Source: Kiritimatiellia bacterium (lineage in GTDB: Bacteria; Verrucomicrobiota; Kiritimatiellia; UBA8416; JABMPJ01). Taken from it: a stretch of DNA of 64,000 nucleotides. The DNA is taken from contig JASLOA010000041.1 in the NCBI GenBank assembly GCA_030745755.1, positions 6,515-70,514 of the forward strand. Direction: 5' to 3'. Position 1 is the first letter of the stretch. Every line of letters begins with the position of its first letter. The position numbers and the translations under genes were made by a program. Positions 192 to 63,856 of the stretch are shown piece by piece. The notes beneath the pieces were generated by a model. It did no database searches and was not told the origin of the DNA. It saw nothing but the letters and a program-made list of their open reading frames with translations.

Positions 192-3100
192 CGTTTTGGC
201 GCTGAGGGGAGGAGGCCGGGGAGGGCCATGACGTTTGGTCGTGGGGACTGCAGGTCTTTGCGGATGGCGTTGAAGCGGGCGTCCCTGCCGATAAGGTTCT
301 GGGCTTCGGCGCCGCCCTTGGCGAGGGCGAGCTTGAGCTGGTTGATGGCGCCGGGTTTGTCTCCCGTGCTGAGCTGCATGACGGCCATATCCACGCGCGC
401 CTTCCAGTCGTTCGGAGCCTTCTTGAGATATGTCTCAAGCGCGGGCATGGTTTTGTTCGGTTGCCGGCCCGCCGCGTACATGCGCGCAATGGTCAGGTAG
501 ACGTTCGCCGGTGTGTTGGCGGGCAGCTTGGTACGGCATTGGTCAAGCAGGGCGCCCATCTCCTTGAGGTGTCCGCCCTGCTGGTAGAGCTGTGCTATCT
601 GGAGCTGGTAGTTCGGCGGAAGCCCCTTGTTGCCTGCGATATTGTCCAAGAGCTGCTTGTAGTTGGTCCGCAGCCCGGCCTTGAAGTAGAGACGTGCCAA
701 CTCCAGGGCTTTGCCGATGTCGAGCTTGCCTTGCGGCGCGAGCTTCTGGAGCTCAGCGATCCTGCTGTTCATGCTGTTAATGCTGTTCAGGTGATTCAAG
801 AAGCCCGGGACCTTCTGGTTGTGCGGGTCACGTTGCTGGAAGTCCAGCATGAGATCGCGGGACTCATCGATGCGGCGCTGGCGCAGCAGAACTTCCTGGG
901 TTAGTCGGAAGTTGGCTTCCGGGCTGAGCGGGTAGAGCGTGCGCGCCTGGTGGAAGGCCAACTCGGCATCGTCGAACTTGCCGCGATTGGCATACAGGCC
1001 GGCGATGGCGCTGCGCAGCTTGGAGAATGACTTGCGGGCTACGATGTCGCGACGGAACTTGCTGTCACGGGTGAGACGACGGGTATACCAGTCCCAGAAA
1101 TCCTGGTCGTTGCGAATGGTGGTCGTGTCGAGCGGTGTCTTCTTTGCATTGATCTTCATGATCAGACCGTGGGGAGTGAGATAGGGGTACATCCAGCGGA
1201 TGACATAACTTTCCTCAACGTAGAAGTCATGGCGGTAGTTGTTGTGCTCGAAGATCATCTGGGCCAGGATACCATTGATCTCCATGACGCCCAGCGCGCC
1301 GCTGACCTGCACGCGCCCGTTCTCTATCTTCAAGGCGGCATTCTTGGGGCGTTTACCTGCGTTGACCTCCTCGACGTAGCGCTGGAACGATCGCGCACTG
1401 TCAGGCTCGGCCGGGATCCAGATCTGATCCCCGTACAGGTCACGCGTCACGCTCATGAAGGTGTTGTCCGCCAGGGCGTTCTGCGTAATGAGGTAGACAT
1501 CCTCCCGCACGCGGGCGGAGTAGATCATGTAGGTGGGGACGAATCGTCCGGGGTCCGTGCCGCCGTAGAAGATGGCATTCTGTGTCATCGCGGGCGGAAA
1601 TACCGGGTTGGGAAGAGGCTCCTCATGCGGATCGAGCTCTTCGCTGATGGCCTCGGCCCCGCGTAGCTGGTAGTTGCCGAACTGCCAACCGAAGTCGTGT
1701 CCGTTCTGTTCGGCCCCGCCGTAGGTCCGGATCAGTTCCTTGTTGTAGGCGTTCTCGCGCAGCGGCACGAGGGGCAGGGCACAGGCCACGGCCAGGCTGA
1801 GCCAGACCAGCGGGCGCCCCTTCTTGAAGACGGTGTCGAAGACGGCGAGGCCGCAGATAAGACCGTAGCCGATCCAGAAAGCATAGAGGGCATGCGAGGA
1901 GATGAACTTCACGCGCTGGATGAAGGTGTCCTGGATGTCGCCTTTCGGATTGGCCAGGGCAATCAGCATCAGGCTCATGGCGAGGAATCCGAGCAGCGTG
2001 GCGATGATCCACTTCTGCGTGTGCGGATCGATCGTCATCTGGAACTCGAGTCGGCTGCGACGCATCCAGAGAATGGCGATGGCGGCGACAGTCGGAAGCA
2101 CCATCAGGATCACAATGCCGCCACTCTGTCCGACAATCTCCCAGAGTTGGGCGGCATCCACGGCTGCCCCTGCCTTGCGCAGCGGAGCGGTCACACGTCC
2201 GATACGTGTAGCCAGAATGCCGATAAACCCGAAGTAGGCTCCTATGATTCCCAGCAGTGCGATGCCGATCGTGATGCGCTCGGAGATGGTTGTGGGGACT
2301 TTGCCGCGCAGTTTCTCAATCAGTTCTTCGCCCTGTGTCACAAAGATGGACGCCCCGCCGGCCCCCATAAAGAGAATGATGATACCGATCAGGTACTTGT
2401 CGAGTCGGACCTGGGCCGCGGCCTCCATGCCGATGGCGCCGAAGAGACGCTGCAGAACGACGAGTGCCGTGGCCAGGACGGCCAGGCAGATGGCGGCATA
2501 CATGGCATTGAATCGACGGCCGAACACCTTGACCCGCCATGCCGTGAAGGGGAGGAACCCGATCAGGGCCACTGGCAGGGTAAACTGGCCACGCAGGTCG
2601 GTCAGGTAGGCCCCAAGCTGGTCGATGAACCGGGCCGAGAACATGTCGGCCGGCTTGATGCGCTCATACTGACCGCGTGAGATGGCGTGCTTGAATCCCT
2701 CCCACGTACGCGGGTAGCCCCAGTTCATGGGCGGGTTGCGCAGGTCGGAGACAATCGGCATGTAGATATAGAACCCAATACCGAGTTCCATCAACAGCAG
2801 AGAGATGGCCACGGTGCGGCCGCGCGGAAGCAGGAAGAACGCCAAGAGCAGGATCACGAAATTCCCGACCATGTAGAAGGCGAACGTTTCGTGCGACGGG
2901 TGGATGATGGGCGGCAGAGCGCCTTTGGAGAAGAGCACCTCAAAGATATCACCAATCGAGTCGATGCTGGGCACAGGCTTGGGCAGCGACTCCCAGCGCT
3001 TAATCAGGGCCAGCGCAACCATGTAGGGCGCGCCCGTGATCGCGAAATCACGGAACAGCTTGATGTCGCGCAGGAAGACGGCAAAGACGAGGGGGAGTGC

Positions 3101-3757
3101 GGCAAGGAGAAGTACCTGGTAGTTCGTCAGCCCCAGCCCGAACACGAATGCCGTGAGATAGAGAAACCGGTCACTCGGACGTCGCATCCAGTGGTAGGTG
3201 AGGAGAAATACCCAGACCAGGAAGAAGGCGTTGAGACTGTATACCTCGACAATAACCGACTGGGACCACATGACGGGTGAGAAGGCAAAGAGCAGGCTGG
3301 ACACGACACCGCCGATCCAGCAGATGACATCTTCGGTTTTCTCGCCGGCAGCATGAAGGCTGCCGCGGGAGTCCTTCAGCATTTCGGATCCCGAGCGGCA
3401 GATCAGCATGGCGGTGGCCCCGGTGGCGAGCGCGCCAAAGACAACCGATGCCAGGCCCACACTCCAGGAAGGGTTGGGCTGTCCGCGGAACTGCACGAAC
3501 GAGAAGATGCGCGTGAACAGCCAGCAGATCATGGTCCAGATCGGGTAGCCGGGCGGATGGGGAACGCCGAGTGCATCGGCTGCCACGGCCAGTTCGCCGC
3601 CGTCCTCCAGGGTCACGGTGGGTGCCAGGGTCCAGAGGTAGACCACGAAAGACGCCAGGCAAGCGGTCCAGAACGCACTCCAGTCCAGGCGCCTGAAGAA
3701 TCTCGTCTCCTGCTGTATATCCAAGGAACCGCTCCGTTCAGTAGGTTTCGGCAACAA
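188..3757 (-). CDS. DUF2723-domain polytopic membrane protein (GT-C-like putative glycosyltransferase) with a C-terminal TPR-repeat domain
   Basis: 1189 aa ORF. The N-terminal ~700 aa have many TM helices with DUF2723-type motifs (PPGYPIW, tryptophan-rich loops). The C-terminal ~400 aa contain TPR-like repeats (AQLYQQGGHLKEMGALL, ARMYAAGRQ). It overlaps the rsmE stop by 4 nt. Confidence 0.75.
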   Translation of the reverse strand: MLPKPTERSGSLDIQQETRFFRRLDWSAFWTACLASFVVYLWTLAPTVTLEDGGELAVAADALGVPHPPGYPIWTMICWLFTRIFSFVQFRGQPNPSWSVGLASVVFGALATGATAMLICRSGSEMLKDSRGSLHAAGEKTEDVICWIGGVVSSLLFAFSPVMWSQSVIVEVYSLNAFFLVWVFLLTYHWMRRPSDRFLYLTAFVFGLGLTNYQVLLLAALPLVFAVFLRDIKLFRDFAITGAPYMVALALIKRWESLPKPVPSIDSIGDIFEVLFSKGALPPIIHPSHETFAFYMVGNFVILLLAFFLLPRGRTVAISLLLMELGIGFYIYMPIVSDLRNPPMNWGYPRTWEGFKHAISRGQYERIKPADMFSARFIDQLGAYLTDLRGQFTLPVALIGFLPFTAWRVKVFGRRFNAMYAAICLAVLATALVVLQRLFGAIGMEAAAQVRLDKYLIGIIILFMGAGGASIFVTQGEELIEKLRGKVPTTISERITIGIALLGIIGAYFGFIGILATRIGRVTAPLRKAGAAVDAAQLWEIVGQSGGIVILMVLPTVAAIAILWMRRSRLEFQMTIDPHTQKWIIATLLGFLAMSLMLIALANPKGDIQDTFIQRVKFISSHALYAFWIGYGLICGLAVFDTVFKKGRPLVWLSLAVACALPLVPLRENAYNKELIRTYGGAEQNGHDFGWQFGNYQLRGAEAISEELDPHEEPLPNPVFPPAMTQNAIFYGGTDPGRFVPTYMIYSARVREDVYLITQNALADNTFMSVTRDLYGDQIWIPAEPDSARSFQRYVEEVNAGKRPKNAALKIENGRVQVSGALGVMEINGILAQMIFEHNNYRHDFYVEESYVIRWMYPYLTPHGLIMKINAKKTPLDTTTIRNDQDFWDWYTRRLTRDSKFRRDIVARKSFSKLRSAIAGLYANRGKFDDAELAFHQARTLYPLSPEANFRLTQEVLLRQRRIDESRDLMLDFQQRDPHNQKVPGFLNHLNSINSMNSRIAELQKLAPQGKLDIGKALELARLYFKAGLRTNYKQLLDNIAGNKGLPPNYQLQIAQLYQQGGHLKEMGALLDQCRTKLPANTPANVYLTIARMYAAGRQPNKTMPALETYLKKAPNDWKARVDMAVMQLSTGDKPGAINQLKLALAKGGAEAQNLIGRDARFNAIRKDLQSPRPNVMALPGLLPSAPKR

Positions 3758-3790
3758 ACACTAAAGTATGCCGAAAGGCCACGAGGGGTG

Positions 3791-4720
3791 TCAATGTCGC
3801 AGCAGGCAGATGATCGCCACGGTCAAGCCATAGAGCACGATGTTGACAAGGATAGGGATGTCTGTGAGGAGGATCTTCTCGGGCCGCCCGCCCTCGCTGT
3901 GCCGGTAGACAAGGTCCATGTAGCGAAAGATGCCGAAGATGACAAAGGGGATCGTGAAGCCCAGCGCGGCCGTCCCGAACTTTGCCTCGGTTTCCGGCCA
4001 CAATGTGTAGATTGAATAGCACACGATGGTGGTGGCGGCGATGATGGCAATCAGGAGATCCAACAGGTGGGCGTCGTAGTGCATGAGATTGCGACGATGT
4101 ACCTCAGGTTCCTCGACGCCGGAGAGCAGTTTCTCGTGACGCCGCTTGCAGAGCGCCAGGAACATGGCGAGCAGGAAGGTGCACAGCAGCAGCCAGGGCG
4201 AGATGGTGACATCGTTCAGGACCACGGCCCCGGCAATGGCCCGCATCACGAAGCCCGCGGCAATGATCATGGTATCAAGCAGTGCAATCTGCTTGAGGTA
4301 TATGGTGTAGGCAAGCTGCATGAGAACGTAGCTGCACAGGACAACCGAGAATGGGGCCGACAGGAAATAGGCACCGAGCAATCCCCCGGCCAGGAGTATC
4401 CATCCAAGGATCAGTGCTGTCACCGGCGGGATTCGCCCGGATGCGATGGGGCGGTTGCGCTTGACGGGGTGATGCCTGTCCGCATCGCAGTCGCTCAGAT
4501 CGTTGAAGACATAGACGCCGCTCGATACGATGCAAAAGAGCAGAAACGCCGGTATGACACGATCAAGGTCACGCAGCTCCAGTGGTGTGAGGCGCATACG
4601 ATCCCAGTAGGCGAAGAAGAAGGCGGCGCCCACCAGGCCGTTCTTGGTCCACTGCTGCGGCCGGAGCGCGCGGAGCAGATCAAGGAAGAGCGATGGTCGA
4701 GATGAATCCGTGTTGCTCAT
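3791..4720 (-). CDS. UbiA-family prenyltransferase, decaprenyl-phosphate phosphoribosyltransferase (DPPR synthase)-like
   Basis: The NDLSDCDADRHHPVKRNRPIASG motif (NDxxDxxxD) and about 8 TM helices are present. The likely start is MSNTDSS at 4720, overlapping the upstream GT2 gene stop by 4 nt; the ORF-track start at 4786 would overlap that gene extensively. Confidence 0.75.
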   Translation of the reverse strand: MSNTDSSRPSLFLDLLRALRPQQWTKNGLVGAAFFFAYWDRMRLTPLELRDLDRVIPAFLLFCIVSSGVYVFNDLSDCDADRHHPVKRNRPIASGRIPPVTALILGWILLAGGLLGAYFLSAPFSVVLCSYVLMQLAYTIYLKQIALLDTMIIAAGFVMRAIAGAVVLNDVTISPWLLLCTFLLAMFLALCKRRHEKLLSGVEEPEVHRRNLMHYDAHLLDLLIAIIAATTIVCYSIYTLWPETEAKFGTAALGFTIPFVIFGIFRYMDLVYRHSEGGRPEKILLTDIPILVNIVLYGLTVAIICLLRH

Positions 4721-5454: not shown

Positions 5455-6887
5455 GCTCTACTTGCTCTTGCCTTTTTTGCTGCAGGTTTCTCCCGAACGG
5501 AGACATCGCTGTACTCCTTGCCGAACTCACCCACGTAGAGTGCGCGCGGACGGAAGATCCTGTTCTTCTTGAGGTATTCGTGCACACGCGCGGTCCATCC
5601 CGCTACACGACTGACCGCGAAGACGGGTGTAAACATGTTGCGGTGGATGCCCATCGACTTGTAGATAATGCCGGAGTAGAAGTCCACATTCGGGAAGATT
5701 CCCTTCTCCTTGCCCAGCGTTGCCACGACACGCTTCTCCAGTCTGCGCGCGATCCGCAACAACAGGGCGGCATCCTTGTCATGCTTGGCGACATATCCGG
5801 CCAGGGGCCCCAGGATACGGGCGCGCGGATCGTAGGTCTTGTAGACGCGATGACCCATGCCCGTGATCTTCTTCTTGCGGCGCATAGCCTTCTCGAACCA
5901 CTCATCCACGTTATCGGGATGTCCGATTTTCTCAAGCATGACCAGCACGGCTTCGTTGGCGCCACCGTGGAGCGGGCCGCTCAGCGCGGCGATACCGGAG
6001 CCGATCGAAAAGTAGACATCGGACAGGGTCGAGGCTACCACCATCGAGGCAAACGTGCTGGCGTTCATGCCGTGGTCCGCATGGAGGATCAGCGCGATAT
6101 CCATGATGCGCTCCTGTTCCGCGGTGGGACGCTTGCCGGTCATCATGTAGAGGAAATTCGCGGCGTGACCCAGTTCAGGATCGGGCTCTATCGGCAACCG
6201 GTGTTCGCGAACGCGCGCCACGGCAGCCGAAATGGTGGCCAGTCCGGAGATCAGATGAATACAGGCGGCCCGGCCGGCTGCATCTGTGGTGCCGACGGGT
6301 ACTTCGGCAGGCCTCTCGGCCTTGGCCTTCTTGAACTCGTAGATGGCCTTCTCTTCACCCTTCGGCAGCGTTTCCATGGGGATGGAGTCTTCGTCTGCAG
6401 CGATGGCCCGGACCGATTTCGGCCGAGCGGCGTCACTGTCCTGCCACGTGAGACGCTGACGCATCAGGTTGGTGCCCAAGCGGAGACAGGCCATGGGGTG
6501 CATCTGCTCGAGGGGAAATCCCATCAGCATACGCAGGGTGTGGGGAAGGGAGCGTGCGGCCAGCAGTTTGGCCTTGAACGACTCGAGCTGTTTCTCAGTG
6601 GGGAGGCGTCCGTAGAGGAGAAGATAGGAGACCTCCTCAAATGTTGAGTAGGCGCACAGGTCAAAGATGTCATAGCCGCAATAGGTCAGCTCACCCCGCG
6701 TCCCGTTTACGAACCCGATTTTGGTCTCGCAGGCGATGGCGCCTTCTAGGCCGGGGCCCACGGTACAGTCAAGCGGCCAGTTGATACGGCTGATGGTCTT
6801 GGCTTCGGGTGTGTCCTGCGTCTCGCGGCGTGCCTTGCGGGCCGCCTTGAGTACGATTTCGGTGATCTTCTCGGTTTCTCTGTGCAT
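5451..6887 (-). CDS. gltA: citrate synthase
   Basis: HGGANEAVLVMLEKIG and the GMGHRVYKTYDPRA signature are present. I prefer the start at MHRETEK (6887), which has an AGGA upstream; MQMQG at 6938 is an alternative. The stop overlaps the GT2 start by 4 nt. Confidence 0.85.
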   Translation of the reverse strand: MHRETEKITEIVLKAARKARRETQDTPEAKTISRINWPLDCTVGPGLEGAIACETKIGFVNGTRGELTYCGYDIFDLCAYSTFEEVSYLLLYGRLPTEKQLESFKAKLLAARSLPHTLRMLMGFPLEQMHPMACLRLGTNLMRQRLTWQDSDAARPKSVRAIAADEDSIPMETLPKGEEKAIYEFKKAKAERPAEVPVGTTDAAGRAACIHLISGLATISAAVARVREHRLPIEPDPELGHAANFLYMMTGKRPTAEQERIMDIALILHADHGMNASTFASMVVASTLSDVYFSIGSGIAALSGPLHGGANEAVLVMLEKIGHPDNVDEWFEKAMRRKKKITGMGHRVYKTYDPRARILGPLAGYVAKHDKDAALLLRIARRLEKRVVATLGKEKGIFPNVDFYSGIIYKSMGIHRNMFTPVFAVSRVAGWTARVHEYLKKNRIFRPRALYVGEFGKEYSDVSVREKPAAKKARASRA

Positions 6888-6981
6888 AGTGGTTATTCCT
6901 GAAAATGAAACGCTATCACGGGTGCCCTGCATCTGCAACCCAGATGTCGTCAGGCGCCGTCAGGTGTGGGCCGCCAGGCGG

Positions 6982-7986
6982 TCATGTTGCCGTGGCGCCG
7001 GCATCGCCAGGGACCACCTTGCCGTGGGTGGCGATGTAGATCATGTAGACGACTCCGCCAATCAGGCTCCAAAACAGAACGGCGCCGTAGACCAGCAGTG
7101 AGAGTGGAACGGCGCGGGTCTCGGCTACACCGAGTACGCCGAGCAGAAACTTGGCAGCCGCTTCGCGTGTGCCCAGCCCGCCCGGTGTGGCCGGAATCGC
7201 CGCCACGGCGTTGATCACGGGGAAGACGGTGAGGTAGTTCCAGAAGTTCAGTGTGATGTCGAGTGCACGCCCCAGGAAGTAGGCGCATCCCACAAGTAGG
7301 ACGTGGTTGCTGATCGATAGCACCAGGGCTTTGGCCAGGAGGACGGGCTCCTTTATGATGCCGTGGGCCGTGGTGTAGGCTTTCGTAATGATCTTGCCCA
7401 GTGCGGTGCGTTCCTCCAGACGCTTGAAGAAGCTCCAGCGTTCCATCCAGTTGTGACCGAAAGTCATGGCAAGAAATCCGATCATACCACCCAAGAGGCA
7501 GCCGAAGAAAACAAGCGACCAGCGCGTGGCTTCGTGCTCGAGAAAGAAGGGCAGCTTGATCAGCATGATGGTGACAGTGAGAATGACCAGCCCGGCCAGT
7601 CCAATCAGGCGGTCCAGGGCAACGGTCGAAACGGCTTCGGTCTTGTGGCCGGGGATCTCGCGCGTGACGAACCACGCCTTGACCACGTCGCCCCCAGTGG
7701 CTCCGAAGAGGAATGCGTTGAAGAAATGCCCCACAAAGTAGAGTTGCAGTGTTTTGAGTATGGGCAGGTGCAGGCCCCGGGCATCAAGCAACAGCTTCCA
7801 GCGCAGCGTGCAGAGCAGCAGGCAGATCCCGAACCCTCCGATACCGAGCACCAGCATAGGCCACTGCCGTGCCGCGGCCTGGAGGGCTTCGACCATGTCG
7901 GCCTTGTTATCCATCCGCGCAAAGATGAATACGATCAAGCCGATGCCAATCAGTAGCTGAACAAGCGATATAAGTTTCTTCTTCAT
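6982..7986 (-). CDS. UPF0104 / lysylphosphatidylglycerol-synthase-TM-region family membrane protein (flippase-like)
   Basis: 334 aa with 8 predicted TM helices and the TIGR00374-like pattern (..GG.GTREAA...LLGVLG..). Members of this family often sit next to glycosyltransferases. Confidence 0.65.
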   Translation of the reverse strand: MKKKLISLVQLLIGIGLIVFIFARMDNKADMVEALQAAARQWPMLVLGIGGFGICLLLCTLRWKLLLDARGLHLPILKTLQLYFVGHFFNAFLFGATGGDVVKAWFVTREIPGHKTEAVSTVALDRLIGLAGLVILTVTIMLIKLPFFLEHEATRWSLVFFGCLLGGMIGFLAMTFGHNWMERWSFFKRLEERTALGKIITKAYTTAHGIIKEPVLLAKALVLSISNHVLLVGCAYFLGRALDITLNFWNYLTVFPVINAVAAIPATPGGLGTREAAAKFLLGVLGVAETRAVPLSLLVYGAVLFWSLIGGVVYMIYIATHGKVVPGDAGATAT

Positions 7987-54304: not shown

Positions 54305-54379
54305 TGGCACCCCCTAGGGGAATCGAACCCCTCTTTCCGGGATGAGAACCCGATGTCCTAGCCGATAGACGAAGGGGGC
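54305..54379 (-). tRNA. tRNA-Glu (anticodon CUC), CCA encoded
   Basis: The reverse complement folds as acceptor GCCCCCT/AGGGGGT, D-arm GTC-TATCGGCTAG-GAC, anticodon stem TCGGG/CCCGG with loop TTCTCAT (CTC), T-arm GGGG-TTCGATT-CCCC, then G-CCA. Confidence 0.85.
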
Positions 54380-57612: not shown

Positions 57613-59490
57613 CTACAGATCGAACGGGCTGATGTAGTCGCCCTTCTCGGCCTGCAGGGCCTCGAGGCGCTTACGCTCGCCAGCCATCTCATCGGTCCAC
57701 GTCTGCGGTGTATCGTCGATCGTGGCGTAGATGGTGGCCATGCGGTCGTGCTTGGCCAGGAGCTCGGGGATACGAATCGTGAACTGGTCAACGTAGTCCT
57801 GTTCCGTGTAGTCCTCGCCACGCACTTCCTTGAAGAGGCGCTTGAGGTCCTCGAACTTCGGGATCCTGCCGCAGCCGGCCTCAAGGGCCTCGGCTTCGCC
57901 ATGAATACGGAGTTCCATCCACTTGATCCAGACCGACTTGTCCAGCTTGCCGTTGAGGAACTGACCGTCCTTCTTAATGAAGTAGTTGGTTCCGAACACC
58001 TGCGGACGCTTGATGTCCTTGGCGAAGTCCAGGTTGTTCTGGATGTAGCGACCCACGCTCATGGAGAGGAAGTCCATGTTGGACATCACGTTCCAGGTCC
58101 GGACACCTTCCTGGCCGATCGTGGCCGCGGTGGTTTCGGATTCGAGCGTGGCGCCCATCGTGCAGATACCGTGTTCCCAGCTATAGGCTTCACGGACAGG
58201 CACGTTCGTGTCGCTGTCACGGCCACCATAGATGATACCACCGATCGGGAGCCCTTCGGGGTTGTCCCAATCCGGATCCGCATTCTCAAGATCGCTCATC
58301 TGTACGGTGTAGCGGGCGTTCTTATGGCTGCAGGTGGAAACGCGCCCGTCGGGGCCTTCCATGCCTTCAGTCCACTGACCACAGTAGTTCTCGCCCTCGG
58401 CGGGCACCTCACCGGTCATTCCGATCCAGTAGGGCTTGCCATCCTTAACGAGCACGTTGCCGAACACAACTTCGCCGGGCTTTGTCAGCACGTCCCAGAT
58501 AACCGGGTCGTCGTCCTGGTTGACGTCGGTGATGATGCCGAAGATGCCGTTCTCGACGTTAGCCGCACGGAACTCGCCGTCGATGACCTTGAAGTAGGCG
58601 AGGTCATCACCCACGATGTTCTCGCCGGGGATCATGGCCGTGGCGGTCTTGCCACAAGCACTCGGGAAGGCGCCGGCCAGGTAGGTCTTGCGACCATTGG
58701 GGCCGTTGCTGCGCATGATGAACATATGCTCGGCCAGCCAGCCTTCGCGGTCTGCCTTGCGAATGGCCAGACGCAGGGAGAGCTTCTTGAGCCCGACGGT
58801 GTTGCCGGCATACTGCGTGTTGACGCTGAGCGTGGTGTTCTGGGTGTAGTCCATGTACACGCGGTTCAGCTCGTAGTTCTTCGAAGTCTTACGCTCGTCG
58901 ACCTCGCCCGTGGCGTGACGGTATTTGAAGAACTCGAAGTTCTCGTGGCTGGCGCTCTGGCGCTTGAACTCCTCGTAGCCGCGGCGGTAGAGCAGGTCTT
59001 CGCTGTGGCAGACGTAGGCGGAGTCGGTGATCTGCAGGCACGGAATCGCAAAGGTGGAGTTCGTGGTGCCGAGGCAGAAGAAGCGCACCAGCATCTTGCG
59101 GCCCTTGTAGGCGCCACGCTGGAGATTCTCCATCTCTGCGATACCCTCGTCGCGAGACATCTGGTTGAGCTTCTTATCGAGATCAACGCCCTCGGGGACG
59201 AGGTACTTGGTAACGTCCTTCTTGCGGGCCTGGTCGAAGTAGCCGTCCCAATGGACCGTGTGGCCTTCTGTGTTCAGCGGAATCTCTTCGTTCTGGTCGA
59301 TCGCCAACTGGCGGCAGTAGGCCACGTCCTCGTCGGAATCGTCGCCGACCCAGACGGAGTCCGGCTCGCATAGTGCGATCGCGTGCGCGATGAAGTCACA
59401 GACGTCGCTGTTATCGATAGCGGCGAGCTTCTGGAAGCTCTCGTCACTCATTTTGCTCTGCAGCAGAGCTTTGCTGTCACTCATGGTCAT
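57613..59490 (-). CDS. pckG: phosphoenolpyruvate carboxykinase (GTP)
   Basis: 625 aa with AFPSACGKT (kinase-1a), the PGENIVGDD context and the overall length of GTP-PEPCK. Confidence 0.9.
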   Translation of the reverse strand: MTMSDSKALLQSKMSDESFQKLAAIDNSDVCDFIAHAIALCEPDSVWVGDDSDEDVAYCRQLAIDQNEEIPLNTEGHTVHWDGYFDQARKKDVTKYLVPEGVDLDKKLNQMSRDEGIAEMENLQRGAYKGRKMLVRFFCLGTTNSTFAIPCLQITDSAYVCHSEDLLYRRGYEEFKRQSASHENFEFFKYRHATGEVDERKTSKNYELNRVYMDYTQNTTLSVNTQYAGNTVGLKKLSLRLAIRKADREGWLAEHMFIMRSNGPNGRKTYLAGAFPSACGKTATAMIPGENIVGDDLAYFKVIDGEFRAANVENGIFGIITDVNQDDDPVIWDVLTKPGEVVFGNVLVKDGKPYWIGMTGEVPAEGENYCGQWTEGMEGPDGRVSTCSHKNARYTVQMSDLENADPDWDNPEGLPIGGIIYGGRDSDTNVPVREAYSWEHGICTMGATLESETTAATIGQEGVRTWNVMSNMDFLSMSVGRYIQNNLDFAKDIKRPQVFGTNYFIKKDGQFLNGKLDKSVWIKWMELRIHGEAEALEAGCGRIPKFEDLKRLFKEVRGEDYTEQDYVDQFTIRIPELLAKHDRMATIYATIDDTPQTWTDEMAGERKRLEALQAEKGDYISPFDL

Positions 59491-59677: not shown

Positions 59678-60187
59678 ATGAAACGGATAATAGCGCTGGG
59701 TGTGGGTCTGATGGTTGTGGCTTCGACTGCAATGGCGGCGCAGCCGCTGATGGTGCAGGGGGTCCGTGAAATTGGCGTCAGCGGCATGCTGGATGATAAC
59801 GGTGAACACCTTGGGCTCACGCTCAATGGCCGTTTGGGCTATTTCGCCGTGGATGGCATTGAAGCGGGCGTTCGGGGCGGGGTCGCGCTGCGAGGCAGTG
59901 GCAGCCGCAACGTTACGGTCGGCGTGTTCTCTGAGTACAACTTCGATATTGGCGGTTCGCTGGTTCCTCATGCAGGACTGGGACTTGGCCTGGGGTGGTC
60001 CGATATCGGGACGAAGCACGACAGTTATGTTCAGATTGAGGCGTGGGGTGGAGCCAAGTACTTCTTCATCGACTATGCCGCATTCGGACTGGACGCGTGT
60101 CTGCTATACGCCACCGAAGATGTCTACAACGGCTACGATGATCCGATCGACTGGATCCTGCGCCTCAACACACGCTGGTTTTTTTAG
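59678..60187 (+). CDS. small outer-membrane beta-barrel protein (OmpW/OmpA-like 8-strand type)
   Basis: MKRIIALGVGLMVVASTAMAAQP signal peptide, Gly/aromatic-rich alternating strands, and a C-terminal ...NTRWFF. Confidence 0.55.
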   Translation: MKRIIALGVGLMVVASTAMAAQPLMVQGVREIGVSGMLDDNGEHLGLTLNGRLGYFAVDGIEAGVRGGVALRGSGSRNVTVGVFSEYNFDIGGSLVPHAGLGLGLGWSDIGTKHDSYVQIEAWGGAKYFFIDYAAFGLDACLLYATEDVYNGYDDPIDWILRLNTRWFF

Positions 60188-60214
60188 CCGATCATGCGTG
60201 AGCGAGAGCTGGTA

Positions 60215-60245
60215 GGGCCCGCTGCGGAGAGCGGGCCCGGCCGAT
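60215..60245. terminator. hairpin GGGCCCGCT-GCGGAG-AGCGGGCCC between convergent OMP (+) and porin-fragment (-) genes
   Basis: Perfect 9-bp GC stem seen directly. Confidence 0.5.
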
Positions 60246-60261
60246 CCTTCTCGGACAAACG

Positions 60262-61089
60262 CTAGAACGTCAGTCCTGCCTGGACCGAGATGCGCTCCAC
60301 GTCACTGGCGCGCGGGTTGTCGGCACCATCATCGGCCTGGTAGTTGGCATACTTGGCGATGAGAGTCAGGCGATCATTGCATTTCTTGGTTGCCACGACG
60401 TCAATCTCGTCACCGTACGAGATGCTGCCTTCATCCGACTGGAAGTCGTGGTAGACGATCTTGATGGCGGGCATGAAGTCCTTCGGGCACTTCACGTTGA
60501 TGTAGGCGTAGGTGTCCTGGAGTCCGGCTGCCGGGGCGGTCAGAAAGACATCGGCCCAGCCATTGAATTTGTGGCCGGTGGCCAGGGGCGTGCGGAACTG
60601 GCTCCCGTTGTCACTGCCGAGCAGTTCATACCCCGCACCAATGCCGATGTTCTCAAGGCCTGCCGAGAGGTCGGCCATGATGTACTCGGCATCATAGTCC
60701 ACGCCGGCTGACGTGCCGTCGTTATCGCTCTGGCGAGCGTACCCAAGCTGAAGCCCGGTCTTGACGCCGCTCTCAAGGGTGTGCCCTATCTGGCCACTGA
60801 TGCCGTAGGTGTCGCTCGAGTTGGCCTCACCAACTGCGCCGGGCCCCAGGTCGAGCAGGTAGGCGTAGGCTGTGGCCGTGAAGTGATCACAGGGCGAGAA
60901 GGCAAGATTCACGAGGTGTGAGTCCGAATCATAGGTGGCAGCATTCCCCGCAGCGCCCTCGGGTTCAGAGCCGTTGGCCTGCCCAAAGATGCGGCGTACG
61001 GAATCGATGTAAGCATAGCTCAGCTTCAAGCCGGCTACTTCAGGCGCGTCGACGCGAACGGCGTCGTAGGTCTGCTCATTTCTGTGGGT
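60262..61089 (-). pseudogene. 5'-truncated porin-like outer-membrane beta-barrel gene (no signal peptide, no ATG; frame open to a stop at 61090)
   Basis: The translation ends ...RISVQAGLTF, a C-terminal Phe beta-signal. The annotated start is TTG at 61029 and the frame continues upstream (THRNEQTYDAVRVDAPEVAGLK...) until it meets the purF-fragment junction. Confidence 0.5.
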
Positions 61090-61792
61090 CTACTACGGCT
61101 ACCCGGCTTCACACTACGAGGGCATCAATGTGGAAGACTCGCGCAACCGCTGTGGAGCCGCCCTGGCCAGGAACGACAACTACGAGGTCGATATCGTGGC
61201 GGGGATTCCCGATTCCGGTACGGCCCATGCCATCGGCTATGCCATCGAGGCAGGTGTGCCGTACCGTCGGCCGTTCGTGAAATATACCCCCACGTGGCCG
61301 CGCAGTTTCATGCCCCAGGTGCAGGAGATTCGCGATCTCGTGGCACGCATGAAGCTGATCCCCATTCCTGAGCTGATCAAGGGCCAACGCCTGCTGTTCT
61401 GCGAGGATTCGATCGTACGTGGCACGCAACTGCAGGATATTGTGCAGCGCGTCTTCGACTACGGGGCCAGGGAGGTCCACATGCGGCCGGCCTGTCCGCC
61501 GCTGGTTTACGGGTGCAAGTATCTCAACTTCTCGCGTTCGCGCTCGATTCTTGATCTCGCCACGCGCAAGGCCATTCGCGAGATAGAGGGCAGTGAGAAT
61601 ACGGACAAGCCTGAGGTCTACGCGGACTGCACCACACCTGAGTATGCGGAGATGATTGAGCGGATCCGGGTCCGCCTCAGACTTTCATCGCTGCAGTTCC
61701 AGAAGCTGGATGACCTCGTGGACGCGATTGGCCTGCCCAAGAAGAAGCTCTGCACCTATTGCTGGGATGGGTGTGAAGGCTGCAAGAAGTAG
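61070..61792 (+). pseudogene. purF: amidophosphoribosyltransferase (purF) C-terminal PRTase-domain fragment lacking the N-terminal glutaminase domain
   Basis: In-frame from the stop at 61067-61069: VCSFLWVYYGYPASHYEGINVEDSRN...DIVAGIPDSGTAHAIGYA...LLFCEDSIVRGTQ...CKYLNF...CTYCWDGC matches the PurF region from the FEYVYFARPDS motif to the C-terminal Cys cluster. About 250 aa of the N-terminal Ntn domain are absent. Confidence 0.7.
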
Positions 61793-61849
61793 TTGGACCG
61801 CTTGACAGCTTCTCCCTTCGGCGTATACTGAAGGTCGGAGGCAGGCATC

Positions 61850-63856
61850 ATGGTGCGGTGGTTGGCGGACAGAATTCGCGCGTCGTTGGCAGTGCGACTT
61901 GCACTGCTAACCGGCGGGCTGCTGTCGTTAGCGGCGGCGATGACCGGCATCATCCTTTTCACCACTGGCCGTCAATTGCTTCAGGATCAGATCCGCTCAA
62001 GTCTGACGGGGATGGCATGCGCCCGCGCGGCGGAGATTGCCGGTGTCGTTGAGCAGGATTATGAGCGCACCGCGCTGATTGCATCACGTACGCGTTTGCG
62101 TGAATACCTGGTCAATGTGAACAGTGGCATTGACGTTGAAGCCAACCGGGCCCGGATGAAGCGTATTCTGACGGACGCAATCGAGTCTGTAGATGCTATT
62201 CACTATACGGAGGTGCTGGATACAGAGCACACACGCATCGTGGAGGCCGGCGAGCATGTGGGTCGCAGTGGCCCTGCTCCTGTGTCTCTTTGCCGGGCCG
62301 GCCAGGAGGACTTCATACATGGGGACTGGTACCTCCTCGAGGGTCTGTTGCACTGCGACGTGTATGGCCCGCTGGTGAACCCTCTCTCCGGGGAAGACGA
62401 GGTCATAGGCGTCATTCGCACCACCTTCAGCGTTGAGCGCATCCTCTACATTCTGGCGGACTACACGGGGCTGGGGGAGACGGGCGAGTTAGTGCTTGGG
62501 CTGCAGGAGGGTGGACGAATCGTGACGTTGGGGCCGCGCCGCCATGATACGAAGAAGGACCTCAAGCGCGACCTCCCCGAAAGGCCGGGCGAAGGTGTGG
62601 CACTGCGTCGTGCGGCAGTGGGAGCGCGCGGGTTCCTGGAAGACTACCTGGATTACCGGGGCGTCCGTACACTGGCAGCCTACATGGCTGCACCGGCGGG
62701 TAACTACTTCCTGGTGGCCAAGATTGACCGCGCAGAGGCCCTGGCTCCCGTCAACCGTTTGGCCGTGCTGGGCGGGCTGACAGGCGTGGCTATTATTCTG
62801 TTTGGACTGGTGTGTTCGGTGTGGTTTGCACGGGTCCTGGTGCGTCCGGTCCGTGCACTGGACCGCGCTACCCAGGTACTTGCCGATGGGAATTTTGCGC
62901 ATCGCGTCCCGCTGTTCGGGACCGACGAGATCGGTCGTCTTGCGCAGTCGTTCAACAACATGGTCAGACGGATCAAGGAAATCACCGCCTCGCGTGATGA
63001 ATTGAACCGCGAGATCCAAGAGCGTAAGCGTGCTGAGGAGAGACTGGAAGACAGGAATCTGTCCATGAGGGAGGATCTCGACATGGCGCGGGACATCCAG
63101 GCGGCCCTCCTCCCGCGCAAGCAGATCGCGTTTCGCAGCAGTACTGTGGGTGGGCAGAACGTCTTGAACTTCGCTCATTTCTACCGCCCCTCCCTGGCGC
63201 TGGGCGGCGACTTTTTCCAGGTGATTCCGCTTTCGGACCACTCCGCCGCCGCCATCGTGTGTGATGTCATGGGGCACGGGGTTCGCTCCGCACTGGTGAC
63301 GGCCATCTTTCGCGGGATGCTGGAGGGACGCCGCCAGGACCTGGGCGATCCTGCGCAAGTGCTGTGCCGGCTGAATCGCGGCCTGATGACGGTACTCTCC
63401 CAGCCTGAGCAGTTCACGTTGGTGTCCGCTGCGTGCCTCGTCTTTGACCTGCGCCTGGCGCGCGCAGCCTGCGCCAATGCCGGGCATCCGTCTCCCTATG
63501 TGATCAACGGTGCGACCGGTAGCGTTTCGCCGCTGGGACCGGATGGTGATGGCGTGGGACCGGCACTTGGCACGGACCCGAATCCGTTCTACGAGGTCAG
63601 CTACCACAGCATGCGCGAAGATGACCGGTTCTTGCTCTACACGGATGGGCTGTTTGAGGTATCTCCCCCGGGGCGCGATGAGTTTCTCGGGCAGGAGAGG
63701 TTCGTTGATATGATCAAGAAGCATGCGGCGGAACCGCTGCAGGAGATGATCGATGGCCTTGTGCGTGAACTGGAAACGTACCGGGGCGGGGCGGAGTTCG
63801 ATGACGATCTCTGCCTGCTGGGAGTTGAGCTGGGATCGCTCAAAGCGGAGATCTAA
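61850..63856 (+). CDS. membrane sensor with HAMP domain and a C-terminal PP2C/SpoIIE-type serine phosphatase domain (RsbU-like)
   Basis: An N-terminal TM is followed by a ~280 aa extracytoplasmic sensor (Cache-like), a second TM and HAMP (..RPVRALDRATQVLADGNFAHRVP..). The SpoIIE motifs GGDFFQVIPL...AIVCDVMGHGVRSALV...LYTDGLFE follow. Confidence 0.8.
   Translation: MVRWLADRIRASLAVRLALLTGGLLSLAAAMTGIILFTTGRQLLQDQIRSSLTGMACARAAEIAGVVEQDYERTALIASRTRLREYLVNVNSGIDVEANRARMKRILTDAIESVDAIHYTEVLDTEHTRIVEAGEHVGRSGPAPVSLCRAGQEDFIHGDWYLLEGLLHCDVYGPLVNPLSGEDEVIGVIRTTFSVERILYILADYTGLGETGELVLGLQEGGRIVTLGPRRHDTKKDLKRDLPERPGEGVALRRAAVGARGFLEDYLDYRGVRTLAAYMAAPAGNYFLVAKIDRAEALAPVNRLAVLGGLTGVAIILFGLVCSVWFARVLVRPVRALDRATQVLADGNFAHRVPLFGTDEIGRLAQSFNNMVRRIKEITASRDELNREIQERKRAEERLEDRNLSMREDLDMARDIQAALLPRKQIAFRSSTVGGQNVLNFAHFYRPSLALGGDFFQVIPLSDHSAAAIVCDVMGHGVRSALVTAIFRGMLEGRRQDLGDPAQVLCRLNRGLMTVLSQPEQFTLVSAACLVFDLRLARAACANAGHPSPYVINGATGSVSPLGPDGDGVGPALGTDPNPFYEVSYHSMREDDRFLLYTDGLFEVSPPGRDEFLGQERFVDMIKKHAAEPLQEMIDGLVRELETYRGGAEFDDDLCLLGVELGSLKAEI

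Follow-up and report, generated by a model that had tools for sequence, protein, structure and literature searches.

A PurF-like gene and a porin gene, both truncated, meet at the probable scar of one recent short-repeat deletion in a Kiritimatiellia population

The window analyzed here, a 64-kb stretch of a metagenome-assembled Kiritimatiellia genome, contains two incomplete genes that stand head-to-head and meet at a single short sequence. The gene on the minus strand is the 3′ part of an outer-membrane beta-barrel (porin) gene of the Alginate_exp family, and the gene on the plus strand is the 3′ part of a gene for a paralogue of the amidophosphoribosyltransferase PurF. The genes and features of the locus are as follows.

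57613-59490, minus strand: GTP-dependent PEP carboxykinase gene, left synteny anchor; intact, order as in relatives
59678-60187, plus strand: gene for a 169-aa predicted outer-membrane protein, left synteny anchor; intact, order as in relatives
60262-61086, minus strand: remnant of the Alginate_exp-family porin gene; 85% identity to residues 158-432 of a 432-aa relative
61067-61069, plus strand: TAG stop that shuts the PurF-like frame just upstream of the junction; lies within porin antisense sequence
61068-61080, no strand: junction AGGTCTGCTCATT, very probably of a deletion; single kept copy of a short direct repeat, with the porin gene (antisense) to the left and the PurF-like gene to the right
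61070-61792, plus strand: remnant of the PurF-like gene; 96% identity to residues 232-470/471 of 470/475-aa relatives
61090-61095, minus strand: two consecutive TAG codons (plus-strand CTACTA) that shut the porin frame just upstream of the junction; lie within PurF-like antisense sequence
61650-61853, no strand: segment polymorphic in the population, replaced by 188 bp of unrelated sequence in the JGI 3300035250 strain
61850-63856, plus strand: HAMP-SpoIIE (PP2C-type) phosphatase gene, right synteny anchor; intact, directly after the PurF-like gene as in relative locus L014

The porin remnant consists of codons 158/159-432 and the stop codon of a 432-aa protein, and it aligns across all 275 of its residues with residues 158/159-432 of full-length, PF13372 (Alginate_exp)-bearing relatives at 84-85% identity. 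It has lost its Shine-Dalgarno site and start codon and, from the protein, the signal peptide and about 130 residues of the mature part. The minus-strand frame is open from 61089, its first usable start is TTG 61029, and the next ATG lies far downstream; NCBI annotates the frame from that TTG as QGH42_11280, a 255-aa "hypothetical protein." The sequence confirms what the initial annotation had said of this ORF, namely that it has neither an ATG nor a signal peptide, starts at TTG 61029, and stays open to 61089.

On its own, the porin remnant gives no Pfam match and stays below the PF13372 gathering score, and its membership in the family is taken from 85% identity to members. The PF13372 match in a full-length relative covers residues 47-171 (37.1 bits, against a gathering score of 25.2), which is the part deleted here. 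The window copy is therefore like the AlgE-like PF13372 family in that its full-length relatives at 84-85% identity match the model and carry an N-terminal signal peptide, and differs from it in lacking residues 1-157, and with them both the signal peptide and everything that the Pfam model recognizes. Judged by inspection (no predictor), the N-terminus of the full-length porins, MFRTGTIMWTALFVLATLTAGPAIA/EG, is a typical Sec signal peptide, so the family is not one that normally does without a signal peptide; the window remnant, which begins at residue 158, has no cleavable Sec signal peptide. Nearly all of the 120 listed porin homologues are ~400-470 aa long; among the handful that fall far below this range are the 255-aa remnant of the window itself and proteins encoded on short contigs. 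With no signal peptide and, as judged from the fold, about one-third of the barrel gone, the remnant would not plausibly be functional. Nothing ties this Kiritimatiellia porin subfamily to alginate.

The PurF-like remnant consists of codons 232-471 and the stop codon, which amounts to the phosphoribosyltransferase (PRTase) domain with its four Fe-S cysteines. It lacks the start codon, the Shine-Dalgarno site, and the entire Ntn-type domain at the N-terminus. The frame opens directly past the TAG at 61067-61069 and ends with the stop at 61790-61792. The remnant starts with VCSFLWVYYGYPASHYEGINV, and its residue 1 pairs with residue 235 of Bacillus subtilis PurF (ICSMEYIYFSRPDSNIDGINV; E = 8e-30); the alignment spans residues 235-404, the PRTase half only. 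This agrees with the earlier description of a purF homologue that begins in frame right after this stop and retains only its PRTase part. TIGR01134 matches the remnant with 120.3 bits (cut-off 350) and at profile positions 234-380 only. Compared with Fe-S PurF of the B. subtilis type (PDB 1AO0, 1GPH; TIGR01134), the remnant keeps the PRPP-binding loop EDSIVRGT, including the acidic pair of the type I PRTase domain (LLFCEDSIVRGTQ aligned with VVMVDDSIVRGTT), and, by alignment, all four 4Fe-4S cysteine ligands, at the equivalents of Cys236 and Cys382 and in a C-terminal CxxC; it differs in lacking the whole N-terminal domain. JGI calls a gene within the remnant from an internal GTG at 61130 (220 aa, "amidophosphoribosyltransferase"), while the NCBI record lists no gene there.

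The intact homologues of this gene differ from canonical Fe-S PurF in the glutaminase half. An intact relative scores 183.7 bits on TIGR01134, below the cut-off of 350. The Ntn nucleophile Cys1 is replaced by Gly or Ser in 79 of 79 intact family members, Arg26 by Leu in 79 of 80, and Asn101 by Val in all 80, and no member has Asp at position 127. All 80 have the four Fe-S cysteines, and the PRPP-binding acidic pair is invariant in the family. On this pattern of residues we classify the gene as a PurF paralogue rather than as canonical purF, and its parent would already have been no glutamine-dependent GPATase. The view that the truncated gene is non-functional as a GPATase stands for the remnant, but the canonical purF parentage that went with it does not, since the intact family already lacks Cys1 and the glutaminase residues.

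Loci of relatives were taken from two sources, contigs with the closest full-length porins and GTDB genomes with the closest PurF-like proteins. The gene order in loci L006-L012 and L013-L015 is PEP carboxykinase (minus strand), 169-aa outer-membrane protein (plus), 432-aa porin (minus), a spacer of ~200 bp, and a 470/475-aa PurF-like protein (plus). The synteny comparison that the initial annotation had proposed thus finds the same flanking genes as in the window, with both genes full length and divergent in five related Kiritimatiellia loci. The spacer between the divergent genes is ~205 bp long and 84% conserved, and each gene has its ATG and a GGGGG-type Shine-Dalgarno site within this intergenic region, which also contains a conserved TTGACC motif. 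Rfam found no riboswitch or known RNA in the relatives' intergenic region, which is deleted in the window, and scans for sigma-70 promoters and terminators in that region and at the window junction gave nothing informative. A search of metagenome contigs with the porin remnant found no intact allele from the same species, its best match being 75% identical in a collection that does not include the window's population, and the ancestral state described below is accordingly that of relatives at 76-86% nucleotide identity.

On the right side of the locus, the PurF-like gene of L014 runs straight into the HAMP-SpoIIE gene, as it does in the window. L006 and L010 had suggested that the window had undergone a second deletion, in which a PfkB/KDG-kinase-like gene was lost from between purF and SpoIIE; this was ruled out by L014 and L015, which also lack the gene after purF, and its presence there is simply variable in the clade. 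Gene order at the locus also varies within the clade, as the purF and porin genes are convergent rather than divergent in L016 and L093.

By blastn, window positions 60002-61080 are colinear with the porin side of each relative and positions 61068/61073-61785 with the purF side. In the window, these two stretches share 8-13 nt, and one contiguous block of 1380-1389 bp is absent from it relative to the relatives. Of the lost segment, ~480 nt are 5′ coding sequence of the porin gene and ~690 nt are 5′ coding sequence of the PurF-like gene, with the intergenic region between them. Two genes had been described as truncated at one point, and both truncations do map to one contiguous 1.38-kb segment in the relatives, far beyond chance. 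The junction placed at 61030-61132 is likewise real, but that span is merely the gap between the gene calls, and the true junction is at 61068-61080, since homology reaches it. Each base of 61040-61110 can be assigned to one parent gene or the other, with no filler DNA, mobile element, or inverted repeat, and no fusion ORF is formed, as the antisense stops of each partner shut both frames.

The junction was compared at base level with five relatives (L006, L010, L013, L014, and L015). All five carry the same motif, AG(G/A)T(C/T)TGCTC(G/A)TT, in direct orientation at both breakpoints, and the window has one copy. In the relatives, the sequence at the porin-side breakpoint is GTAGGTCTGCTCGTTCTGG, the minus strand of which codes for ..NEQTY.. 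(codons 160-164), and that at the purF-side breakpoint is GCAG(A/G)T(C/T)TGCTC(A/G)TTCCTGTGG, which codes on the plus strand for Q(I/V)CSFLW, Q(I/V)CSF being codons 231-235. The window junction sequence is GTAGGTCTGCTCATTTCTGTGG. Exact repeat runs in the relatives are ~5 nt (L006 and L013), 7 nt (L010), 9 nt (L015), and 11 nt (L014); in the window's ancestor the repeat would have been at most 13 nt long, its exact length being uncertain. A repeat search on the relatives' sequences gave only the largest chance repeats, and the microhomology was read from the alignments instead. By our estimate, the chance that random breakpoints share at least 11 bases is ~1e-6 to 1e-5 (4^-11, or ~2.4e-7, per register).

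These comparisons make it very probable that the junction is the scar of one recent ~1.38-kb chromosomal deletion in a Kiritimatiellia population. We favor a deletion over an inversion or insertion because the flanks are colinear, a single block is missing, and a direct repeat stands at both ends. The initial annotation had allowed for an inversion, deletion, or insertion breakpoint or for a chimeric join; the deletion is retained on the strength of the colinear flanks and the direct repeat, inversion and insertion are not, and the chimera is excluded by the seven assemblies discussed below. In the ancestor, the porin gene (minus) and the PurF-like gene (plus) would have been divergently transcribed from the conserved ~205 bp intergenic region, with a direct repeat of up to 13 nt, AGGTCTGCTCATT, present by chance in both genes. 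Slipped mispairing, or some other RecA-independent illegitimate recombination between the copies, may then have excised everything between them, with one repeat copy staying behind. The outcome would be two promoterless, start-less pseudogene remnants in head-to-head orientation, presumably no longer expressed.

A junction of this kind classically marks a deletion between short direct repeats, by slipped mispairing or other microhomology-mediated illegitimate recombination, and RecA-independent spontaneous deletions between short direct repeats were classically described for lacI of Escherichia coli. The Kiritimatiellia junction is like the lacI-type deletions in that one block is gone, the endpoints lie in a direct repeat of 9-13 nt, and one copy is kept. 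It differs from them in that the ancestral allele is known from sister species only, with a repeat length deduced from these, and in that the deletion here spans a divergent promoter region and would have inactivated two genes at once.

The remnants show little decay. In three-way comparisons, the changes unique to each branch of the PurF-like remnant (nonsynonymous/synonymous) were 3/40 for the window, 5/31 for L006, and 4/37 for L010, and those of the porin remnant were 12/37, 18/29, and 24/40, respectively. The 515 remnant codons contain zero stops and zero frameshifts. Because both remnants show few nonsynonymous changes and no stops, the deletion appears to be recent, and young relative to the divergence of the sister species; on the assumption that the remnants evolved neutrally from then on, we roughly estimate that no more than a few per cent at the end of the branch would post-date the deletion. 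Low dN/dS of the remnants would be equally expected under continued selection on them. Since the porin remnant is implausible as a functional gene and nevertheless shows the same pattern as the PurF remnant, recency rather than retained function is the economical explanation for both.

A co-occurring strain provides a further indication. In JGI 3300035250, which is otherwise 99.95-100% identical to the window, the 188-bp replacement of positions 61650-61853 opens with a (ATGTGGGT)n-like octamer array; it takes away the 46 C-terminal codons of the purF remnant, and with them the CxxC Fe-S ligands, as well as the spacer and the ATG of the next gene. That a strain of the same population has replaced the last 46 codons supports the view that the PurF-like remnant is dispensable.

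Retained function could be imagined most readily for the PRTase-only remnant, as a working gene read from the internal GTG at 61130 whose product is a stand-alone, ammonia-using phosphoribosyltransferase. A GAGGG lies 7 nt upstream of this GTG, JGI calls its 220-aa gene there, and the 240-codon frame is intact with the low ratio of nonsynonymous to synonymous changes given above. The N-domain of the family has no Cys1, Arg26, or Asn101, so the lost domain would have been catalytically dead anyway, and E. coli PurF without Cys1 still uses ammonia, Cys1 mutants retaining NH3-dependent activity (PMC3261824, citing Mei and Zalkin 1989). Against this, in every relative the GTG and its GAGGG simply form part of conserved coding sequence (YEGINV), the conserved upstream region, Shine-Dalgarno site, and start codon have been lost, and the scan of the window junction found no sigma-70-like promoter. 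The N-domain is also strongly constrained in the relatives (dN/dS 0.057) and is thus not dispensable baggage, the co-occurring strain lacks the C-terminal 46 residues with two of the Fe-S ligands, and recency covers the equally undecayed porin remnant, which is judged nonfunctional, as well as this one. We therefore consider it improbable that the PRTase half works as a gene, and equally improbable that it is expressed from GTG 61130, for example for ammonia-dependent phosphoribosylamine synthesis or another PRPP-dependent reaction. If it did work, the lineage would be a natural domain-deletion experiment on a widespread and highly conserved PurF-like family.

A recent deletion that left two pseudogenes is also preferred over an inversion or translocation, under which the missing 5′ ends and the intergenic region would persist elsewhere in the genome. 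The variable gene order at the locus in the clade (the convergent genes of L016 and L093) lends this idea some plausibility, but the flanks are colinear and the one contiguous missing block is bounded by a direct and not an inverted repeat. Searching the 64-kb window by tblastn with the full-length proteins recovered the remnants only. A database search with the deleted PurF N-domain returned nothing above 87% identity, which is weak evidence, as the search returned partial proteins only and also missed the known 470-aa relatives. Taken together, a displaced segment is very unlikely, somewhat more so than a working PRTase.

That the source is a metagenome-assembled genome, and that two genes cut at one point resemble contig ends, raises the question of an assembly artefact, in the form of a chimeric join or of two contig ends, each with a partial gene, that were strung together. 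Three pipelines have yielded seven independent assemblies in which the 25-mer across the junction is the same: JGI 3300035204, 3300035205, and 3300035250, NCBI GCA_030747025.1, and the Logan assemblies of SRR25584951, SRR25584962, and SRR25584963. The 255-aa porin remnant also occurs under three NCBI protein accessions. The window matches positions ~6451-70450 of JASLLN010000006.1 (147,275 bp, GCA_030747025.1), so that the junction lies inside a 147-kb contig, far from its ends. Assembler k-mers are much longer than 13 nt, and the shared repeat of at most 13 nt should be too short for a graph mis-join. Two Logan contigs do end at 61649, where the population is truly polymorphic, but 570 bp away they pass the junction unbroken; this speaks against an intact allele being present alongside at an appreciable frequency. 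With the junction 100% identical in all seven assemblies, which come from at least six samples or runs, an artefact is hardly credible, and the deletion appears to be fixed, or nearly so, in the sampled population.

Equally hard to credit is the proposal that neither ORF is truncated and each belongs to a family that is short by nature (a PRTase on its own, and a porin lacking a signal peptide), for which the open frames are the one argument: the PurF-like family is uniformly of full size, with 79 of 79 genomic homologues that could be read to their ends being 466-484 aa long and starting M(G/S)G(F/L)FGV, nearly all of the listed porin homologues fall in the size range given above, and homology in both remnants reaches the first codon past the junction.

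One small deletion that turns two genes into pseudogenes is an ordinary kind of gene loss, and its consequences here are mainly for annotation. Pipelines still call both pseudogenes as proteins (the 255-aa protein of NCBI and the 220-aa protein of JGI), and a metabolic reconstruction of this MAG should count neither remnant. In biological terms, both an AlgE-like outer-membrane channel and a PurF paralogue would have been given up recently by this Kiritimatiellia population.

Of greater use is an incidental lead, a paralogue family that is highly conserved across many phyla, lacks the glutaminase catalytic residues, and co-occurs with canonical PurF. Its members are 65-96% identical and are found in Kiritimatiellia, Lentisphaerae, Planctomycetota, Hydrogenedentota, Spirochaetota, Gemmatimonadota, Latescibacterota, and others, and the N-domain is under strong constraint, with the dN/dS of 0.057 noted for the relatives. 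We found nothing specific in the literature on a Cys-less PurF paralogue family; by analogy with the E. coli enzyme, an ammonia-dependent or regulatory role would be a reasonable guess. Across 80 genomes, the family has no conserved neighborhood beyond close relatives, save for an adjacent Cys-bearing PurF-type gene in 6 loci. In one of these, L017 of a Lentisphaerales MAG, the gene adjoining the paralogue is a canonical PurF with every catalytic motif, so that loss of the paralogue need not mean purine auxotrophy. In the remaining five, which are planctomycete-type loci, the paralogue is adjoined by a second, Cys-bearing PurF-type gene.

The truncated PurF-like gene of the window belongs to a widespread family of proteins of about 470 aa, with identities of 65-96% over many phyla. 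The glutaminase catalytic residues are missing from this family (Cys1 is replaced by Gly or Ser, Arg26 by Leu and Asn101 by Val, and Asp127 is lost); the PRPP site is kept, as are all four Fe-S cysteines. Scores against TIGR01134, the PurF equivalog profile, fall below its cut-off. No literature on this Cys-less PurF-like family was found. Protein homologue searches that took the PurF-like sequence as query yielded partial proteins only (at most 420 aa) and missed 470-aa relatives that are known from contigs, so negative results from these searches should be read cautiously. The features concerned, in the window and in the comparison loci, are as follows.

Window 61070-61792 (+): PurF-like remnant
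L006, undeleted relative, 6389-7801 (-): PurF-like gene
L010, undeleted relative, 6371-7798 (-): PurF-like gene
L013-L092, further comparison loci: PurF-like gene
L006 5288-6376 (-): PfkB-family kinase, 362 aa
L010 5286-6374 (-): PfkB-family kinase, 362 aa
Window 61793-61849: PfkB-family kinase absent
L017, L038, L039, L042, L050-L052 and L090: loci with a PurF-type neighbour of the PurF-like gene

In the Lentisphaerales MAG (L017), the gene directly adjoining the Cys-less paralogue encodes a canonical PurF (2382-3974, +), with the Cys nucleophile and the QHRGQ, AHNGN and DDSIVRGTT motifs. Several planctomycete-type loci likewise contain a second PurF-type gene with the Cys adjoining the PurF-like gene. 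From this adjacency, the Cys-less paralogue and its Cys-bearing PurF-type neighbour may be functionally linked or may form a heteromer.

Both remnants have been handled as genes in public annotations (window 60262-61029 and 61130-61792). The porin remnant is named "hypothetical protein QGH42_11280" at NCBI (255 aa; MDP6631078.1, MDP6810034.1 and MDP7024805.1), and the purF remnant is named "amidophosphoribosyltransferase" at JGI (220 or 216 aa).

The kinase that follows the PurF-like gene in L006 and L010 resembles 2-keto-3-deoxygluconate kinase. A loss of this gene specific to the window was rejected, since it is also missing after the PurF-like gene in the undeleted relatives L014 and L015; in L014, as in the window, the PurF-like gene is followed straight away by SpoIIE. 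The presence of the kinase at this locus is variable. In two more distant relatives (L016 6001-9093 and L093 2935-4458), the PurF-like gene and the porin gene converge, with purF followed by porin, rather than diverge; more than one rearrangement of gene order has therefore occurred here within the clade.

The 204 bp at window 61650-61853 are polymorphic in the population, with 188 unrelated bp in their place in a near-identical strain (L174 2188-2375). This replacement starts with an octamer repeated about 6 times (CACATACC, as read on the locus strand). It gives the HAMP-SpoIIE gene a different start codon and different upstream sequence (667 aa versus 668).

A 314-aa protein (L001 13581-14525), encoded downstream of SpoIIE, STAS and DUF1638 genes at about 1.5 kb past the window's right end, has a weak match to Y1_Tnp, the IS200/IS605-type or REP-associated tyrosine transposase; L006 contains a 296-aa protein of the Y1_Tnp family, likewise downstream of SpoIIE and STAS genes. 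Within the window, a tRNA gene lies at 54308-54379 (-) (Rfam RF00005, 51.6 bits), and a tRNA of equal score is found at L010 13969-14040.
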